Counted from the first letter of the stretch, positions 11,373 to 64,000 are shown. The stretch: DNA of 64,000 nt from an uncultured Clostridia bacterium (GCA_934140005.1 CAKPBB010000006.1:2604-66603), one strand, 5' to 3'. Made by a program: numbers and translations. Notes: generated from the sequence alone by a model not told the origin.

Positions 11373-13109
11373 ATGGAAGATAGAAAACATACTTGTACAA
11401 AGAAATTGTATGAGCCTCAAAAATTCAATAATTTAAAAGAAATAATTAATAATACTAAAGAAAAATTTGGAGATAGACCTGCTTTCAAATTAAAAACAGA
11501 TAAAGAAGGAGAATTTAAGGAAATTACATATAATGAATATATTGACGATATAAATTCTTTAGGAACAGCACTTATCAGTATTGGATTAAAAGATAAAAAA
11601 ATAGGTGTAATTGGTGAGAATAGAAAAGAATGGGAACTTGGATATTTATCTGTTGTTTGTGGTACAGGTATTGTTGTGCCACTAGATAAAGCTTTACCAG
11701 AAAATGAAATATTAAGCTTAATTGAAAGATCTGAGATTGAAGCTATTTTTTATTCTGAAAAATATAATAGTGTTATGGAAAAGGTTAAAGAAGAAAAAAT
11801 AGGTAAAATAAAATTCTTTATTTCAATGGATGCCACAGAAACTAAAGATGACATTTACTCTCAAATAGAACTTGTAAAATTAGGTAGAGATTTAATAAAA
11901 AATGGTGCTAGAAGTTTTTTAGATGCTGAAATAAATAATGAAAAAATGTCTATAATGCTATTTACATCAGGTACAACATCAAAATCTAAAGCTGTTGCTT
12001 TATCACATAAAAATATATGTTCAAATATATATGATATTTCATCTGTATTTGATGTTGGGATAAATGATACATTATTGTCATTTTTACCACTTCATCATAC
12101 ATTTGAATCAACAGTTGGTTTCTTGTACCCAGTTAGTGTTGGTGCTTGTGTTGCTTTTTGTGAAGGTTTAAGACATATTGCACAAAATATAAAAGAGTAT
12201 CAAGTAAGCGTTATGATTGCAGTTCCAATATTATTTGAAAATATGTATAAACAAATATTGAAAACAATAGATAAACAAGGAAAAACAAAGAAAGTAAAAT
12301 TTGGTGTTAAATTAAGTAATTTCTTGATGAAAATTGGTATAGATAAAAGAAGAGAAATATTTAAAGACATACATGCTAGTTTAGGTGGAAAATTAAGATT
12401 ATTTGTTGCAGGTGCTGCTGCATTTAATCCAGAAGCTGAAAAAGGCTTTAATAGTTTTGGCGTTGAAACATATCAAGGATATGGCTTAACAGAAACATCA
12501 CCTGTTATTGCTGCTGAACATAAAGAATGTACAAAACTTGGCTCAATTGGTAAATTATTCCCAAGTTTTGAAGGAAAAATCATTGAACCAAATGAACAAG
12601 GAATTGGTGAACTTGCTGTAAAAGGACCATCAGTTATGCTTGGATATGATAACAATGAAGAGGCAACTAAATCAGCTTTCAAAGATGGTTGGTTCTTAAC
12701 AGGTGACTTAGCATATTTTGATAAAGATGATTATATTTTTATCACTGGTAGAAAGAAAAGTGTTATTGTATTAAAAAATGGAAAGAATATTTATCCAGAA
12801 GAATTAGAAGCTTTAATAAATGAAATTCCAGGTGTTAAAGAATCTTTTGTTTATGGAAAGTCAGATAATGATGATAAAGATGATTTAAAAATTGGTGCTA
12901 AACTTGTTTATGACAAAGATTATTTTGAAAAAGAATATAATTTGACAAACGAAGATGAAATTAAAGCTAAATTATGGAAAGATGTAAAAGAAATAAATAA
13001 AAAAATGCCAACATATAAGTATGTAAAAGAAATTAAAATTACACAAGAAGAATTGATAAAAACAACTACTTTGAAAGTTAAAAGATTTGAAGAAATGAAG
13101 AGAGTGTAA
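11373..13109 (+). CDS. AMP-dependent long-chain fatty-acid-CoA ligase family protein
   Basis: AMP-binding motifs MLFTSGTTSKSKAV, YQGYGLTETS, TGDLAYFDKDDYIFITGRKK. Confidence 0.85.
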   Translation: MEDRKHTCTKKLYEPQKFNNLKEIINNTKEKFGDRPAFKLKTDKEGEFKEITYNEYIDDINSLGTALISIGLKDKKIGVIGENRKEWELGYLSVVCGTGIVVPLDKALPENEILSLIERSEIEAIFYSEKYNSVMEKVKEEKIGKIKFFISMDATETKDDIYSQIELVKLGRDLIKNGARSFLDAEINNEKMSIMLFTSGTTSKSKAVALSHKNICSNIYDISSVFDVGINDTLLSFLPLHHTFESTVGFLYPVSVGACVAFCEGLRHIAQNIKEYQVSVMIAVPILFENMYKQILKTIDKQGKTKKVKFGVKLSNFLMKIGIDKRREIFKDIHASLGGKLRLFVAGAAAFNPEAEKGFNSFGVETYQGYGLTETSPVIAAEHKECTKLGSIGKLFPSFEGKIIEPNEQGIGELAVKGPSVMLGYDNNEEATKSAFKDGWFLTGDLAYFDKDDYIFITGRKKSVIVLKNGKNIYPEELEALINEIPGVKESFVYGKSDNDDKDDLKIGAKLVYDKDYFEKEYNLTNEDEIKAKLWKDVKEINKKMPTYKYVKEIKITQEELIKTTTLKVKRFEEMKRV

Positions 13110-13138: not shown

Positions 13139-13187
13139 AATATCGCATTCTTCTAAAAATAAAATGTAAGAAGATTGCGATATTTTT
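13139..13187 (+). terminator. Intrinsic terminator whose 3' arm shares the 12-mer AGAAGATTGCGA with the three-copy repeat
   Basis: AATATCGCATTCTTCT and AGAAGATTGCGATATT form a hairpin with one mismatch, followed by TTT. Confidence 0.7.
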
Positions 13188-23624: not shown

Positions 23625-23650
23625 AAATTGTTGAAATATTGCATCTGATA

Positions 23651-23787
23651 AAATTATATAATATATGTTTTGAAATACCGCGTAAGCGACCAAACGAACA
23701 AAGTGAGTGCGAATGGAGCAATCTTCATATAAAATAAAAATAGAAGATTGCGACACCAAGGTATAGAAAACATATATTATATAATTT
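23651..23787 (+). repeat. Copy 1 of a three-copy ~135-nt intergenic element (putative structured RNA)
   Basis: Perfect 21-bp closing stem (23651-23671 with 23767-23787), a conserved 59-nt core GAAATACCGCGTAAGCGACC...ATCTTCATAT, and inner hairpin GCAATCTTC/GAAGATTGC. Confidence 0.9.
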
Positions 23788-23813
23788 TAATGTAATAACT
23801 TTAGTAATTTTGC

Positions 23814-56572: not shown

Positions 56573-56704
56573 AGAATAAATATATTGTTTTGAAATACCG
56601 CGTAAGCGACCAAACGAACAAAGTGAGTGCGAATGGAGCAATCTTCATATATTATAAAAAAGTAAGATTGCGACACCAAGGTATGAAAAACATATATTTA
56701 TTCT
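56573..56704 (+). repeat. Copy 2 of the three-copy intergenic element
   Basis: The 59-nt core is identical to copy 1. The closing stem (56573-56591 with 56687-56704) has one bulged T. The inner hairpin loop differs. Confidence 0.9.
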
Positions 56705-57969: not shown

Positions 57970-58677
57970 GTGGTAGCTTATAAAAGAGTTTTACTAAAAT
58001 TAAGTGGAGAGGCTCTAGCAGGAGAAGCTGGAACAGGAATTGACCCAGAAATAATTGGTAATATATGTGATAAAGTTAAAGAAATTTTAGAAATGGGAGT
58101 TCAAGTATCAATTGTAGTTGGTGGGGGAAATTTTTGGAGAGGCCTAAAAAATGGTAAAAAAATGGCAGATAGATCAACAGCTGATTATATGGGAATGCTT
58201 GCAACTGCAATGAATGGTTTAGCACTTCAAGATGCTCTAGAAGCAAGAGGAGTTTATACAAGATTACAAACTGCTATTGAAATGAGAGAAATTGCAGAAC
58301 CATATATTAAAAGAAAAGCAGAAAAGCATTTGAACAAAGGAAGAGTTGTAATATTTGCTTGCGGTACAGGGCATCCATTTTTCTCAACAGACACAGCAGC
58401 AGCTTTAAGAGCAGCAGAAACAGAGTCAGAAGTTATATTACTTGCGAAAACAATTGATGGTGTATATTCTGCAGATCCAAAAATTGATAAAACAGCAGTT
58501 AAATATGATGAAATATCTTATAAAGATGTCCTTGCACAAGATTTAAAAGTTATGGATTCAACTGCAACGGCTTTATGCAAAGATAATAATATTCCATTAT
58601 TAGTTTTTGCAATAAGTGATCCAGAAAATATTGTAAGAGCTGTTAAAGGCGAAAAAATAGGAACAATTGTAAAATAA
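57970..58677 (+). CDS. pyrH: UMP kinase
   Basis: [39 protein letters not shown] start. Confidence 0.95.
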
Positions 58678-58704
58678 ATATAAACAGATAGAAAGAGGTT
58701 TTTT

Positions 58705-59247
58705 ATGAACGAATTAGAAGAAAGAATGAAAAAAACAGTTAGTGTTTTTGAAGAAAATTTATCAGAAATTAGAGCAGGAAGAGCAAATCCAGCAATATTA
58801 AATAAAATTTCAGTAGAATATTATGGTGTTACAACACCAATAAATCAAGTAGCTGGAATATCAGTTCCAGAAGCTAGAATGATAGTTATTCAACCTTGGG
58901 ATGCAAGTATACTAAAAGAAATTGAAAAAGCAATACTTGCTTCTGATATTGGATTAAACCCTAACAATGATGGAAAAGTTATTAGATTAAACTTCCCAGA
59001 ATTAACAGAAGAAAGAAGAAAAGATTTAGTAAAAGAAATTAGAAAAATTGCTGAAGAAGCTAAAGTTGCTGTTAGGTCAATTCGTAGAGATGGAATGGAA
59101 GATGTAAAAGCAAAACAAAAAAATTCTGAGATTACTGAAGATGAAAAAGCATCAAAAGAAGATGAAATTCAAAAATTAACAGATAAATATGTTGCTGAAA
59201 TAGATAAAATATTAGCAAATAAAGAAAAAGAAATTTTAAATGTATAA
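58705..59247 (+). CDS. frr: Ribosome recycling factor
   Basis: IRAGRANPAILNKISVEYYG...IRRDG. Confidence 0.95.
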   Translation: MNELEERMKKTVSVFEENLSEIRAGRANPAILNKISVEYYGVTTPINQVAGISVPEARMIVIQPWDASILKEIEKAILASDIGLNPNNDGKVIRLNFPELTEERRKDLVKEIRKIAEEAKVAVRSIRRDGMEDVKAKQKNSEITEDEKASKEDEIQKLTDKYVAEIDKILANKEKEILNV

Positions 59248-59259
59248 TTGGAGAATATA

Positions 59260-59964
59260 ATGGAAGAAGAAAATAAACCTAGACATATTGCTATTATAAT
59301 GGATGGTAATAGAAGATGGGCAAAAGAAAGAAAATTACCAGTACAACTAGGTCATAAAAAAGGCGCAGAAACTTTAGAGAACATTATAAGATATGCTAAT
59401 AAAATTGGTGTTGAATATGTAACTGTTTATGCTTTTTCAACAGAAAACTGGAAAAGAAGTAAAGATGAAGTTGATGCTTTAATGCAACTTTTAAAAAGTT
59501 ACTTAGATAGTTATAGTAAAAGAGCAAATACAGAGAATATTCGTATAAAAGTTATTGGTGATATGTCAGCTTTGTCAAAAGATTTACAACAAAGTATAGC
59601 AAATGCAATTGCAAGAACAAAGAATAATACAGGAACAACTTTTATAGTTGCTTTGAATTATGGTGGAAGAAATGAAATTACTAATGCTGTTAAAAAAATT
59701 GCATTAAAAGTAAAAAATAATGAATTAAAAATTGAAGATATTACAGAAAATACAATTACGGAAAATCTATATACCAGTGAATTTCCAGATCCAGATATTG
59801 TAGTTAGAACAAGTGGAGAAATAAGAAGTAGTGGCTTTTTAACTTGGCAAAGTGTATATTCAGAATATTTATTTTTAGAAAAATATTGGCCTGACTTTTC
59901 TGAAAAAGATTTAGATAATGTAATACAAACTTATCAAAATAGGCATAGAAGAATTGGAAAATAA
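59260..59964 (+). CDS. uppS: Undecaprenyl-diphosphate synthase (cis-prenyltransferase)
   Basis: PRHIAIIMDGNRRWA, TVYAFSTENWKR, RTSGEIRSSGFLTWQ. Confidence 0.95.
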   Translation: MEEENKPRHIAIIMDGNRRWAKERKLPVQLGHKKGAETLENIIRYANKIGVEYVTVYAFSTENWKRSKDEVDALMQLLKSYLDSYSKRANTENIRIKVIGDMSALSKDLQQSIANAIARTKNNTGTTFIVALNYGGRNEITNAVKKIALKVKNNELKIEDITENTITENLYTSEFPDPDIVVRTSGEIRSSGFLTWQSVYSEYLFLEKYWPDFSEKDLDNVIQTYQNRHRRIGK

Positions 59965-59983
59965 AAGCAAAGGAAGAAATTTT

Positions 59984-60811
59984 ATGAATATAAAAAGAAT
60001 ATTAACAGCTGTAATAGGCTTACCTATAGTTTTTTTAGGATTAGTATTTGGAAACAAATATATTATTGATATAGCAATGGCTATTGTTGCAACAATGGCA
60101 TTTTATGAATATGATAATTGTGTAAAAAAAGAATATAAAGCAATTTCATGGATTGGATATGTTTTATGTATATTAATTGCCTTTATACATATTATACCAA
60201 TTGAGTATTATATAGGAGCTATAATAATAGGAATTCCAACTATTTTGCTATTACTATTCTTGCACATAATAATTACAGACATGAAAATAAATTTTAAAGA
60301 TGTTGCAATTAGCTTTACAGGAATTTTATATATAATAGGTTTTACAGTATTTATTCCTGTTTTATATGGAAATACTGGAAAAATTGATATGCAAAATGGA
60401 AAATTTTTAATTTGGTATCTATTACTTAGTAGTTGGGGAACAGATATTATGGCATATCTAGTGGGCAAACATTTTGGAAAACATAAATTTAGTAAAGTTA
60501 GTCCAAATAAAACTATTGAAGGTTGCATAGCAGGAACTATTGGAGCAATTTTATCATGTTTAATATATACATTCATATTAAATAAAGTATTACATGTTGA
60601 AGTTTATTCATATTTAACAATTGCAATAATTGCATTTGTATTAAGTATTATTGGACAAATTGGAGATTTTGCAGCATCAACAATAAAAAGACAATTTGAT
60701 GTTAAAGATTTTAGCGAGATTTTCCCAGGACATGGTGGAATGATTGATAGAATTGATAGTGTTATATTTGCAGCTCCATATGCATATTTTATATTTATAA
60801 TATTACTATAA
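59984..60811 (+). CDS. cdsA: Phosphatidate cytidylyltransferase
   Basis: SPNKTIEG... and IKRQFDVKDFSEIFPGHGGMIDRIDS. Confidence 0.92.
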   Translation: MNIKRILTAVIGLPIVFLGLVFGNKYIIDIAMAIVATMAFYEYDNCVKKEYKAISWIGYVLCILIAFIHIIPIEYYIGAIIIGIPTILLLLFLHIIITDMKINFKDVAISFTGILYIIGFTVFIPVLYGNTGKIDMQNGKFLIWYLLLSSWGTDIMAYLVGKHFGKHKFSKVSPNKTIEGCIAGTIGAILSCLIYTFILNKVLHVEVYSYLTIAIIAFVLSIIGQIGDFAASTIKRQFDVKDFSEIFPGHGGMIDRIDSVIFAAPYAYFIFIILL

Positions 60812-60826
60812 AATATATTGATTAAA

Positions 60827-60963
60827 GTTTTATTATATATTATTTTGAAATACCGCGTAAGCGACCAAACGAACGAAAGTGAGTGCGAATGGAGCAATCT
60901 TCATATAATTATAAAAATAGAAGATTGCGACACCAAGGTATAAAAAATAATATATAATAAAAC
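60827..60963 (+). repeat. Copy 3 of the three-copy intergenic element
   Basis: Perfect 20-bp closing stem (60827-60846 with 60944-60963) whose sequence differs from copies 1 and 2. The core has one G insertion. Confidence 0.9.
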
Positions 60964-60986
60964 TAATATATATTTAGGAGGAAACT

Positions 60987-62024
60987 TTGGTTTTTATAAT
61001 TGGCACTTTAAAAATAATTTTTTTACTAGGATTCTTAGTTTTCATACATGAGGGGGCACATTTTTTAGTAGCAAAAAAATGTAATGTTGCTGTTAGAGAA
61101 TTTTCTATTGGATTTGGACCGAAGATTTTTTCAAAAGCAAGTAAAGGAACGAATTATTCAATAAGAGCAATACCACTTGGTGGTTTTGTAGATATGTATG
61201 AAGATGATTTAGAAAACAAAAATGTACAATTAAACAATAATGAAATTTCATTTTTAGATAGTAGCAAATCCAAAAGATTTGCTATAACCATTGCTGGAAT
61301 AGTAGTAAATATTGTATTTGGATTTTTAGTATATTTTATATTACAATGTTCGGTAGCAAATGTTTCTACAACTATTGATAGAATTGATACTAGCTATGGA
61401 AATGAATTATCAATGCTTCAAGTTGGTGATACAATAAAAGAAATCAATGGAAAAAAGATTAGATTAAAATCACAAATAGATGCTCAAATTGCTAGTTCAA
61501 ATACAGAAAATGTTAAGGTAAAAGTTGAACGTAATGGACAAATTCTAGATTTATCAATACCAGTTCAAAAAATAATTAATGAAGAAAATAACACAACTAC
61601 TTATAAGCTTGGTATTTATATGAAAAAAGCTGATAAAAATTTCAAAAATCAAGTTTATTATGCTTTTTGGAAAACAACATATTTTGCTGAAATGCTAGGA
61701 GAAAGTGTTTTATCTTTATTTAAAGGAAATGTTAAAGCTGATGAAATGGTGGGACCTATTGGAATTTCGGAAATGATTGTTAAAACAGATGGATTATATG
61801 AGTTTTATTATTTATTAGCTGTTATTTCAATATCACTTGGAGTAACAAATTTATTACCAATTCCTGGTTTGGATGGTGGTAGATTACTTTTTATAATAAT
61901 AGAGGCTATTAGAAAAAAGCCTTTTGAAAGAGAAACGGAAGCAAAAATACAATTATTAGGTTTTTCATTTTTAATTTTGCTATCAATGTATATAGCATTT
62001 AATGATGTAGGAAGAATATTGTAG
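60987..62024 (+). CDS. rseP: RIP metalloprotease RseP/RasP (site-2 protease, M50)
   Basis: HEGAHFLVAK HExxH motif, a PDZ region, and NLLPIPGLDGG. TTG start after AGGAGG. Confidence 0.9.
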   Translation: MVFIIGTLKIIFLLGFLVFIHEGAHFLVAKKCNVAVREFSIGFGPKIFSKASKGTNYSIRAIPLGGFVDMYEDDLENKNVQLNNNEISFLDSSKSKRFAITIAGIVVNIVFGFLVYFILQCSVANVSTTIDRIDTSYGNELSMLQVGDTIKEINGKKIRLKSQIDAQIASSNTENVKVKVERNGQILDLSIPVQKIINEENNTTTYKLGIYMKKADKNFKNQVYYAFWKTTYFAEMLGESVLSLFKGNVKADEMVGPIGISEMIVKTDGLYEFYYLLAVISISLGVTNLLPIPGLDGGRLLFIIIEAIRKKPFERETEAKIQLLGFSFLILLSMYIAFNDVGRIL

Positions 62025-62036
62025 AGGAGAAGAAAT

Positions 62037-62606
62037 ATGAAGTGTAAGATTTGTGGTGCTGAACTAAAAAGAGATGGAGATATTTGCAATAAATGTTATG
62101 AAAAGTATAAAAAAGAAGAAGAACTTGAAATGGATACAAAGCAATTATATCAATTAAAATCAACTTTTGTTCCTGGATATGAAATCTGGAAATGGGGAGA
62201 ATATATACTTTTTGGAATTCTATTATTATTTGCTTTACTTTCAACACAAAAAGTAGCAATATTCTTTGGATTTTTAATTGTTTTTATCGCAGCAATAATT
62301 GGTGGTTTGAAATTGAAAAAGAAGAAAATACAAACTACTACTTGCACTTTTTATGAGAAAAAGATAGTATATAATTCAAATGGAAAAGAAAAGATTTTGC
62401 TATACAAAGATATTAAAGATATGGGATATTTTGAAGATTTCTCTCAAAAATTATTCAAAGTTGGAGATATAAGAATATATCCAGAAAATGCAATTCTAAT
62501 AACATCTGCTATAAATATTGAAAGTGTAAGAAATGTAAAAGAAGAATACGAAAAAGTTAAAAAAATTGTACAAGAGCAAATTAGGATAAATACTGAAGAA
62601 AACTAA
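62037..62606 (+). CDS. Hypothetical zinc-ribbon / two-TM / PH-like (YdbT-type) membrane protein
   Basis: CKICG...CNKC N-terminus and two TM helices. The C-terminal region resembles a bacterial PH domain. Confidence 0.45.
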   Translation: MKCKICGAELKRDGDICNKCYEKYKKEEELEMDTKQLYQLKSTFVPGYEIWKWGEYILFGILLLFALLSTQKVAIFFGFLIVFIAAIIGGLKLKKKKIQTTTCTFYEKKIVYNSNGKEKILLYKDIKDMGYFEDFSQKLFKVGDIRIYPENAILITSAINIESVRNVKEEYEKVKKIVQEQIRINTEEN

Positions 62607-62638
62607 TATAGTAAATTTGGATAAAGGATAATAAGGTA

Positions 62639-64000
62639 ATGCAAAAATATATAAAAGACGTATTTGTAGATTATCAAAATGATAATCCTCTATTAGATGC
62701 GCAAATAGAGAATATAAATTTATATAAAAAGACAAATAAATTGCAAGTTGAAGTTTCTTCTGCAAACCAAATACATATAAATGAAATGGAAGATTTTGAA
62801 AATTATTTAATCAAAAGATTTCATGTAGACAAAGCTTTAATTGATATACATTATAAAGATATACAGATTGAGCAAGATGTAGAAAAACAATGGTCTACTG
62901 TAATAAACTATGTTACTAAGAAGGAACCTTTTAGCAAGGCAATATTAACAGGAAGCAAACTTGATGTTTCTGGTAAAAATATTTCTGTAAAATTAGCTCT
63001 AAAAGGAGCTGATTTTTTACTTGCTAAAAAGTTTGACAAAGGTTTAGAACATTTATTATCAAATATATATAATGAAAATTATCTTGTAAAATTTGAAGAA
63101 AATTTAGCAGATAATTATGAAGAAATATTAGAGCAAAAACGAAAAAGAGAAGAAGAAGAAGCTTTAAAATTCTTAAAAGTACAAGCTGACCAAGAAGCAA
63201 AAGAAGCTAGAGAAAAGAAAAAAGAAGAAAAGAGAGAAATGGCAGAAAAACAGAATACTGCTGTACAAGCTTCTGCAAGTGCACCAAATGAGAGTAAGCC
63301 TGTTGAACCAAAAGTTGAAGAGAAAACAGAAGAAAAAGATACACCTTTAATAATTGGTAGAAATATGAATTTAAAAGGTGATCCAATAAAGATAAAAGAT
63401 ATTTCTGTAGATTCAGATAAAGTTGTAGTTGATGGTGAACTAATTGCAGACTCAATGGATTCAAGAGAAATAAAAAATGGTGAAAAAGTAATACTAATGT
63501 TCAATGTATATGATGGCACAAGCAGTATTACTTGTAAGGCTTTCTTAGATGCTGACAAATTTAAAAGTGTTTCAAAAAGAATAAAAGGTTCAAAAGGATT
63601 AAAAGTTGACGGTGTAGCAAAATATGATCAATTTGCTAAAGAAATAACCATAATGGCAAATACTATTATTGAAACTCAAGGAACTAAAAAAGTAAAGAGA
63701 ATAGATGATGCTGTTAAAAAGAGAGTGGAATTGCACATGCATACTCAGATGAGCCAAATGGATGCAATAACTCCTTGTGCAGATTTAGTAAAAAGAGCTG
63801 TTTCTTGGGGCTGGAATGCAATTGCAATTACTGACCATGGTGTTGTTCAGTCTTTTCCAGATGCACATAAACTTTTGGAAAAAACAGGTGATGATATCAA
63901 AGTTTTATATGGTGTTGAAGGTTACTTTGTTCCTGATAAAGACCCTGGTGTATTCAATTCAAAAGGACAAAGTTTAGATTGTGAATATTGTGTATTGGAC
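62639..64000 (+). CDS. polC: DNA polymerase III PolC-type alpha subunit, N-terminal 454 codons (runs off the 3' edge)
   Basis: Hand translation of the open frame. The PHP-domain start RVELHMHTQMSQMDAI...AITDHGVVQSFPDA is typical of PolC. Confidence 0.9.
   Translation, partial: MQKYIKDVFVDYQNDNPLLDAQIENINLYKKTNKLQVEVSSANQIHINEMEDFENYLIKRFHVDKALIDIHYKDIQIEQDVEKQWSTVINYVTKKEPFSKAILTGSKLDVSGKNISVKLALKGADFLLAKKFDKGLEHLLSNIYNENYLVKFEENLADNYEEILEQKRKREEEEALKFLKVQADQEAKEAREKKKEEKREMAEKQNTAVQASASAPNESKPVEPKVEEKTEEKDTPLIIGRNMNLKGDPIKIKDISVDSDKVVVDGELIADSMDSREIKNGEKVILMFNVYDGTSSITCKAFLDADKFKSVSKRIKGSKGLKVDGVAKYDQFAKEITIMANTIIETQGTKKVKRIDDAVKKRVELHMHTQMSQMDAITPCADLVKRAVSWGWNAIAITDHGVVQSFPDAHKLLEKTGDDIKVLYGVEGYFVPDKDPGVFNSKGQSLDCEYCVLD

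Follow-up and report, generated by a model that had tools for sequence, protein, structure and literature searches.

The hairpin that separates cdsA from rseP in a 64,000-nt stretch of DNA from an uncultured Clostridia bacterium (the window, with a G+C content of 26.6%) is probably, at roughly 60% in our estimate, a palindromic mobile element that was inserted recently. The element measures about 120 nt, with terminal repeats of about 13 bp and a conserved core of about 95 nt, and would be a MITE-like, non-autonomous unit mobilised in trans. It is dispersed, is present or absent at orthologous sites, comes here with a direct repeat of 6 bp and with flanking sequence copied in inverted orientation, occurs in both orientations, and its copies decay. 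It is a member of a previously undescribed repeat family, of which about 40 genomes of uncultured gut Clostridia contain more than 100 copies, distributed over 85 independent loci.

The hairpin, at positions 60827-60963, is 137 nt long, with a perfect stem of 20-21 bp and a 97-nt interior. Its arms, GTTTTATTATATATTATTTT (60827-60846) and AAAATAATATATAATAAAAC (60944-60963), are 100% complementary, which bears out the 20-bp closing stem seen in the sequence-only reading. An inverted-repeat search of the window (arms of 16 nt or longer, separated by up to 250 nt) extends the stem to 21 bp (60826-60846 / 60944-60964, again 100% complementary), and among the matches listed only this hairpin and one other, of 23 bp, are fully complementary. 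That other hairpin is a sister copy, and there are three copies in all, each on the + strand:

23649-23789, + strand: copy 1, between fmt and a gene of the Asp23 family, with 23-bp perfect arms
56573-56704, + strand: copy 2, upstream of greA, with 19-bp arms of 89% complementarity
60827-60963, + strand: copy 3, between cdsA and rseP

All three are sense-oriented inside operon-like gene runs. They share core 22-mers at 23678, 56598 and 60853, with 0 expected by chance, and three distinct core words of 19-22 nt each have exactly three occurrences in the window where zero are expected. The predicted folding energies are -42.9 kcal/mol for copy 1 (z = -9.5), -32.9 kcal/mol for copy 2 (z = -5.6) and -39.7 kcal/mol for copy 3 (60826-60964; z = -8.5), and none of 200 shuffles folds as stably. 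RNAalifold run on the three supports the common fold that had been proposed for them.

Copy 3 lies in the gene run pyrH-frr-uppS-cdsA-rseP-ORF189-polC, and its surroundings are organised as follows, all on the + strand:

59954-60811: cdsA, open reading frame for phosphatidate cytidylyltransferase (Pfam CTP_transf_1, E = 5e-53), stop codon TAA at 60809-60811
60808-60813: left direct repeat ATAAAA, the target site, overlapping the cdsA stop; present once in the empty allele (...CTATAAAA followed by CTAATATATATTTAGGAGG) and twice in the filled one
60814-60962 (equivalently 60808-60956): 149-nt block missing from the empty allele
60814-60833: outer left arm TATAT(TGATTAA)AGTTTTAT, locus-specific; the right junction has ATAAAACT(A)ATATA, of which this arm is an imperfect inverted copy
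60834-60846: left terminal inverted repeat TATATATTATTTT, in which the inner 12-13 or so arm pairs are conserved
60847-60943: conserved core
60944-60956: right terminal inverted repeat AAAATAATATATA, pairing with 60834-60846
60957-60962: right direct repeat ATAAAA, outer part of the 20-bp stem
60963-60986: original flank CTAATATATATTT, with AGGAGG at 60976-60981, unchanged between empty and filled alleles; the outer left arm pairs with the first bases of this flank
60987-62024: rseP, site-2 protease with a TTG start (Pfam Peptidase_M50, E = 8e-59)

The two genes are separated by 175 nt, with 23 nt between the end of the stem and the TTG start of rseP, as had been noted before. Between rseP and polC, at 62037-62606, lies an open reading frame of 189 aa with no Pfam match, and in relatives at 63-68% RseP identity it is replaced by open reading frames of 48 aa and 143 aa.

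Many metagenome contigs encode an RseP protein that is 96-100% identical to that of the window. We found that contigs with one identical RseP (P0018) carry the cdsA-rseP spacer in three states:

(a) empty, spacer 26 nt, ...CTATAAAA followed by CTAATATATATTTAGGAGGAAACTTTG: L156, L158, L159
(b) window arrangement, spacer 175 nt: the window, L001-L003, L154, L155
(c) flipped, spacer 189 nt: L144-L147, L150-L153, L157, L160, L161

Thus the filled locus L155 and the empty loci L156, L158 and L159 encode the same protein, P0018. The flipped allele, seen at 11 loci on contigs from other strains, some of them off one same contig, contains 135 nt, from TTTTATTATATATTATTTT to AAAATAATATATAATAAAA, that are the exact reverse complement of the window's (135/135 positions in L144, 134/135 in L157 and 132/135 in L145). 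Four more distant species, L115 (77% RseP identity), L148 (68%), L149 (63%) and L066, have cdsA and rseP just 14-21 nt apart, with neither a palindrome nor dxr in the spacer, and for this reason we take the empty state to be ancestral and the insertion to be recent. The same short spacers, together with the 26-nt spacer of the empty allele, dispose of the suggestion that copy 3 occupies the slot where dxr normally lies. There is no dxr slot in this lineage, and the apparent one is a coincidence of gene order in other Firmicutes with no counterpart here; in B. subtilis the order is uppS-cdsA-dxr-rasP. The pyrH-frr-uppS-cdsA-rseP-polC cluster (window 57970-64000) is without dxr and proS/ispG in the window species and in L115, L148, L149 and L066. 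A metagenome scan with RseP returned one close relative (L115), the remaining matches being at most 49% identical. The same intergenic region holds a copy of its own in a goat MAG, RGIG2424 (L072 7158-7289), where the perfect arms are 28 bp long and of different sequence, the P2 loop is GAAA and not GUAA, and P1 reads AAUCC/GGAUU, the form typical of that genome's other copies. On its sequence this copy is best read as an independent insertion, and it suggests either a preferred kind of site or the scarcity of permissive sites in compact genomes.

Orthologous sites are polymorphic for the presence of the element, a property expected of MITEs, both within the window species and between species. 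Two further loci are reciprocal in this respect, one comparing L108/L042/L098 with L079 and the other L068/L079 with L098/L042/L108. The insertion in L079 or L068, compared with L098, is bounded by ATAA (4 bp), and that in L108, compared with L079, has no clear direct repeat (about 0-1 nt) and a 7-nt filler. The direct repeat therefore varies in length (6, 4 and about 0-1 nt), which fits microhomology or template switching better than the action of a classical transposase. In these two other filled/empty pairs the empty site contains one of the flanks, and beyond the element lies an inverted copy of that flank, imperfect and 17-19 nt long, so an inverted flank copy accompanies the insertion in 3/3 informative pairs.

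At copy 3 this inverted copy accounts for the outer part of the stem. The outer 7 bp of the 20 (GTTTTAT / ATAAAAC) are the duplicated target ATAAAA plus one flank base and an inverted copy of both: the right half of the stem is made of 13 nt of element (AAAATAATATATA), the repeated ATAAAA and the flank base C, while in the left half TTTTAT and AG are an inverted copy of ATAAAA and CT, with TATAT opposite ATATA further out. The sequence-only reading had seen compensatory stem changes in copy 3. Pairing is indeed kept, the family covaries, and the G-C/A-U alternation next to the core is genuine (GTTTT/AAAAC in copies 1 and 2, ATTTT/AAAAT in copy 3, as it had correctly described), but only about 13 bp per arm are element, and the apparent compensation in the outer stem is a product of insertion, as the filled/empty comparisons show from the inverted target copy.

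The same division of the arms holds across the family. The terminal repeats follow the consensus ATATATT[G/A]TTTT and its complement, as terminal repeats of a MITE should, and the inner 12-13 or so arm pairs are kept in 59-73 of 74 copies, save for the dimorphic core-adjacent pair, which is a family-wide alternation between GC (29 sequences) and AU (26 sequences); outwards, conservation drops. At 79 loci the perfect arm run nevertheless has a median of 22 bp (interquartile range 18.5-26.5, maximum 52), and pairing of random flanks extends by at least 5 bp in only 2% of trials (P = 0.02). Since the perfect runs are long, only about 13 bp are conserved and extension by chance is rare, each copy must carry a perfect extension specific to its locus. 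Once in place the copies change: within the species copy 3 gains pair-breaking substitutions (among them C>T in P1, G>A in UGG and T>C in P3), which argues that individual copies are under no visible purifying selection.

The core pattern CCGCGNRAGCGACCAAACGAAC matches 110 stretches in a one-genome-per-species collection, all from MAGs of uncultured Clostridia, Clostridium sp. or Eubacteriales, and the gut hosts include human (Hadza, Nepal, Brazil), mouse, rabbit, goat and chicken. Clustering of the flanks of these stretches defined the 85 independent loci. A covariance model, R1, recovers every copy found with the pattern and a dozen divergent or truncated ones. The element measures about 120-190 nt and is non-coding, multicopy, dispersed and intergenic, as MITEs are. 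In one mouse MAG, MGBC103331 (L011, L024, L026, L029, L059, L066, L077), the copies share arms of 60-90 nt and have an extra hairpin of about 25 nt inside P3; this longer composite version seems to have spread recently as a unit. A small open reading frame in the core (ATG at 60889) was rejected because P3 varies in length out of frame between copies, its indels not being multiples of three, and no open reading frame is conserved.

Searches of existing collections with the element returned nothing related. Across the whole window only two tRNAs reach the gathering score of an Rfam 15 model, and a permissive scan (E up to 10) of 60780-61000 gave four matches at chance level (E = 0.27-1), with 14-20 bits against gathering scores of 42-176. 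The core had no BLAST match in 50,697 phage records and 72,556 plasmids, its pattern had none in IMG/VR, a full-text literature search for the core sequence on both strands, as DNA or RNA, found no paper, and keyword searches found general reviews only. No transposase or other mobilising enzyme was found among the neighbours of the copies, and no autonomous relative, in the 110 loci: the neighbouring genes fall into no recurrent family (none at more than 5 of 85 loci), and the neighbourhoods hold no longer relative of the element, so that an autonomous insertion sequence with related ends was not found in them. Truncated copies, considered as the ends of a larger autonomous element, proved to be plain deletions. 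A gene of the Rpn family (PDDEXK_2 / HTH_Rpn_C; a recombination-promoting nuclease or putative transposase) lies about 7 kb downstream of rseP, outside the window (L001 18288-19295), and was rejected as a partner, homologues occurring near elements in only 1 of 85 locus clusters.

The core has the following parts, given for copy 3 on the + strand:

60847-60943: whole core, beginning with GAA at the 5' side and ending with AA at the 3' side; 138.5 bits with R1
60850-60854 / 60937-60941: helix P1, NNNCC/GGNNN
60855-60862: P2, mini-hairpin GC[GTAA]GC
60865-60892: middle hairpin, CCA/TGG (CCAA/UUGG in the family model) and CGAAC-loop-GTGAG, with an extra G at 60875 in the loop
60894-60902 / 60920-60928: helix P3, of variable length in the family
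60929-60936: junction GACACCAA, in the family 8-10 nt, GACAC(A)CAA

The extra G of copy 3 (GAACGAAAGTG) had been taken for the only difference between the three cores in the window. It is real, and it is the sole difference in the conserved core outside the P3 loop, but it is not the sole one overall: the P3 loop differs too, the distal P3 stem of copy 2 has GTAAG against AGAAG, and GGTAT is followed by AG, GA or AA. The G sits in the loop of the middle hairpin, which across the family is 3-4 nt of free sequence. Elsewhere in the window, just 3' of a gene that ends at 13109, a terminator-like hairpin of 15 bp with a T-run (AATATCGCATTCTTC...GAAGATTGCGATATT, 13139-13185) has the 11-mer GAAGATTGCGA in common with the 3' strand of P3 and the junction and scores 21 bits with R1 (E = 0.026); it could be a remnant of the element, a source of P3 or a chance match.

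We tested this structure (arms, P1, P2, middle hairpin and P3) on an alignment, A2, of 74 distinct copies; it was entered by hand because misaligned columns in the MAFFT alignment had hidden P1 from RNAalifold. Standard pairs fill 93.9% of the cells against 84.0% in 500 shuffles, none of which reaches the observed value, and in a control in which the partner was slid by 1-3 columns only 31-49% of cells are paired. Changes on both sides of a pair number 252, where 73 are expected. Covariation is clear in two core helices, P1 (variants UA, CG and AU) and P3, where 33 copies have the pair UA at position 5, 24 have CG and 15 have AU. The search pattern froze the core sequence, so that compensation there is seen in copies that escape the pattern: P1 changes from CC/GG to CU/AG in L082, a C-G pair of CCAA/UUGG becomes U-A in L078, and AC/GU in the middle hairpin becomes GC/GC in four such copies. 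For the middle hairpin two models of the register fit about equally. The core shows the covariation by which structured RNAs are generically recognised, a pattern indistinguishable from that of pairing in single-stranded DNA or of homogenisation of a palindrome.

Mismatches offer some guide to strand. The core helices other than P3 (P1, P2 and the middle hairpin) together have 11 G.U and only 2 A.C mismatches, a hint that the + strand of the window is the preferred one. The arms give no such hint, with A.C and G.U about equal at 10 and 8. In P3 they are also about equal (21 G.U vs 18 A.C), and many other mismatches there come from register shifts. U.G wobbles appear in three lineages at C39/C40 opposite G. 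The P2 loop is of the GNRA type, GUAA and once, in L072, GAAA.

Three other explanations have to be weighed against the insertion of a mobile element. According to one, the AT-rich stem was there beforehand as a palindrome of its own, for example a terminator or another repeat, and only the core was inserted at its centre. This explanation draws on genomes in which the core and inner arms nest in a second palindromic repeat, GTTACAATTCACAG...CTGTGAATTGTAAC, that is also found without the core. This repeat, of about 60-70 bp, stands alone at L008 4646-4710, L105 1507-1575 and L091 6265-6322 and has the core nested centrally at L080 2253-2466, L060 2791-3003, L063 68-279 and L113 5330-5548, the nested core being in either orientation relative to the two unlike spacers of the second repeat. 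An AT-rich palindrome without the core had been named as the observation that would tell for this at copy 3, and it was looked for in relatives and not seen: the empty allele and four related species are without it, and only the right-hand sequence predates the insertion. In the two other filled/empty pairs, likewise, the empty site has the sequence of one arm only. On these allele sequences the explanation is already contradicted at the copy 3 locus, and we regard it as very improbable. A terminator scan found no intrinsic terminator, with GC-rich stem and T-run, at any of the three copies. The element might instead be an inverton, in which a recombinase acting on the inverted arms flips the segment and so switches an outward promoter or signal toward or away from rseP. 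Perfect inverted repeats do flank the segment, the same 135 nt occur in both orientations at one locus in one species, the nested cores just described show both orientations relative to an outer repeat, and a second locus is oppositely oriented in close relatives, L017/L050 and L096/L057, whose flanks are 97-99% identical and whose cores face opposite ways at the same site. However, alleles (b) and (c) have unlike sequence over the 12-28 nt that border the perfect arms on either side, and their spacers are 175 and 189 nt long. Both differences recur consistently in independent assemblies, so the alleles do not interconvert by exchange within the arms; a clean inversion with breakpoints in the inner or the outermost repeats predicts flanks that do not match those observed. 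At the second locus three paired arm positions differ and the outer spacers are unrelated, which in these sequences points to replacement or re-insertion and not to simple inversion. In the other strains sampled, neither copy 1 nor copy 2 changes orientation or spacing, copy 2 being compared in the strains whose contigs extend to it. Weak -35/-10-like matches (GCGACA-17-TATATT) are present in copies 1 and 2, but they are no commoner than in shuffles and copy 3 has none; promoter scans at the three copies give no more than chance, and we therefore dropped the outward promoter. Moreover, greA has a strong predicted promoter of its own downstream of copy 2, no recombinase or other gene recurs near the copies, and the spacing of the core is not fixed, P3 being variable in length. 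(The Asp23-family gene, too, has a promoter-like site of its own, downstream of copy 1.) An inverton is thus quite unlikely, and flipping would appear from the alleles either to accompany remodelling of the arms or to reflect excision and re-insertion, without the clean look of a recombinase switch.

The third possibility is that the element is a functional structured RNA, either a cis-acting mRNA element or a small RNA cut from operon transcripts (for example by RNase III on the long AU stem), whose folding is under selection and whose copies act on neighbouring genes. The covariation of P1 and P3, the compensation in divergent copies, the GNRA-type loop, the core wobbles and the sense orientation of the three window copies in operon-like runs all favour it. 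Nevertheless, those three copies belong to a minority: among independent loci that can be oriented against both flanking genes, 46 are antisense and 15 sense (p = 9e-5). Orientation against GC skew (58 vs 27) is no sharper than this gene-direction bias and is confounded with it. In addition, one copy is absent or in either orientation among strains with the same RseP, pair-breaking substitutions gather roughly as fast as expected under neutrality, wobbles are not preferred in the arms, no Rfam match is credible, no promoter or terminator signal in the element rises above chance, and P2 is a helix of only 2-3 bp. As much as an RNA tetraloop hairpin, P2 resembles the stable DNA mini-hairpins d(GCGNNAGC). 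We consider a functional RNA unlikely. A mobile element is not free of difficulties of its own, in that its core is far more conserved than its terminal repeats, the reverse of ordinary MITEs, the core mismatch bias and the GNRA-type loop also fit a functional RNA, and the antisense bias is not predicted for a purely selfish element without added selection.

For the mobile element that we favour, the conserved core could be a cis-acting module that folds as single-stranded DNA or RNA and is recognised in this form by an enzyme whose gene lies elsewhere, in which case conservation at the level of the family would reflect the ability to move and not a function for the host. Insertion may proceed through a hairpin or fold-back intermediate of which one end joins the target, the paired 3' end then being extended along the target repeat and some 10-19 nt of flank before the second joining. 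Such an extension, modelled on three insertion events, would give each copy its perfect, locus-specific lengthening of the stem, and the same hairpin chemistry, or excision and re-insertion, might flip the core. A more speculative version, to which we give rather long odds, would make the element a hairpin transposon, with the four-helix core serving as a single-stranded DNA (or RNA) handle for an unlinked enzyme and a fold-back or rolling-hairpin-like intermediate that copies the flank inverted, keeps the arms perfect without selection and flips the core in the manner of parvoviral termini. The GNRA-type loop and the wobble bias of the core lean toward RNA in this respect, and the symmetric arm mismatches and the antisense majority toward a process at the level of DNA. 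The 2-bp GC[GNNA]GC hairpin resembles the very stable DNA mini-hairpins of single-stranded phage origins.

Few palindromic mobile repeats have been described in bacteria, and our findings add to them a family specific to uncultured gut Clostridia with AT-rich DNA. It is unusual for its class in having a core that is more conserved than its ends, stems that are lengthened by inverted copies of the target, and empty, forward and flipped alleles that segregate in one species; these alleles could serve as strain markers in gut metagenomes. Perfect, seemingly compensated stems can arise from palindrome making at the level of DNA and are therefore not by themselves evidence of selection on RNA. Were the fold-back mechanism to be true, it would mean movement of DNA in bacteria without a transposase encoded by the element.

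Several known systems share features with this one. The REP/REPIN-RAYT system (HUH Y1) and IS200/IS605-derived elements also comprise a non-autonomous hairpin that is read as folded single-stranded DNA by an enzyme encoded elsewhere, with conservation residing in the structure that the enzyme reads. Our element differs in lacking GTAG/CGTC-headed units of 20-40 nt, none of its copies was found to have a RAYT or TnpA gene nearby, and no target duplication is known for IS200/IS605 elements; membership of REP/REPIN-RAYT is not supported. Invertons, such as the invertible promoters of gut bacteria and the RecV switches of Clostridioides difficile, are likewise short segments between inverted repeats, and natural populations contain them in either orientation, but our element has no promoter above chance, no nearby or recurrent recombinase, alleles that differ outside the repeats, and an empty allele. 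In the terminal hairpins of parvoviruses and AAV (flip/flop), and in fold-back priming generally, hairpin-templated synthesis keeps arms complementary, inverts the loop and copies the flank inverted. By analogy of mechanism only, chemistry of this type would match the perfect locus-specific arms, flipped core and inverted flank copies seen here, in what is, unlike a viral terminus, a chromosomal bacterial repeat with no Rep-like nickase identified at the loci examined.

In the Correia/nemis repeats of Neisseria and in repeats of the ERIC/BOX/RUP type it is the conserved terminal repeats that define the family, Correia having in addition a fixed TA duplication, and we know of none that has been reported with a multi-helix conserved core and variable arms. 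These too are small, palindromic, intergenic repeats that differ from strain to strain, are found in both orientations and, once transcribed, fold into long hairpins (PMC3184786). The closest described elements are the bacterial MITEs of Firmicutes, especially bcr1, beside which we set ours by description, the likeness being one of architecture. The bcr1 element (Group A of the bcr repeats, Bacillus cereus group) is about 155 bp long, is bounded by 5-bp direct repeats, is strain-variable and transcribed (Delihas 2011, PMC3184786), and has a stable cruciform-like fold with compensatory changes, its copies losing stability over time (PMC3184786). Both are non-coding, multicopy, intergenic elements of roughly 130-155 bp with a patchy distribution between close strains, short AT-rich direct repeats (ATAAAA here, 5 bp in bcr1) and a cruciform-like fold with compensation. 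Unlike bcr1, our element has a core that is better conserved than its terminal repeats, a direct repeat of variable length, a locus-specific extension of the stem by inverted flank, and a flipped copy. These four differences set it apart from a plain new MITE of the bcr1 type.
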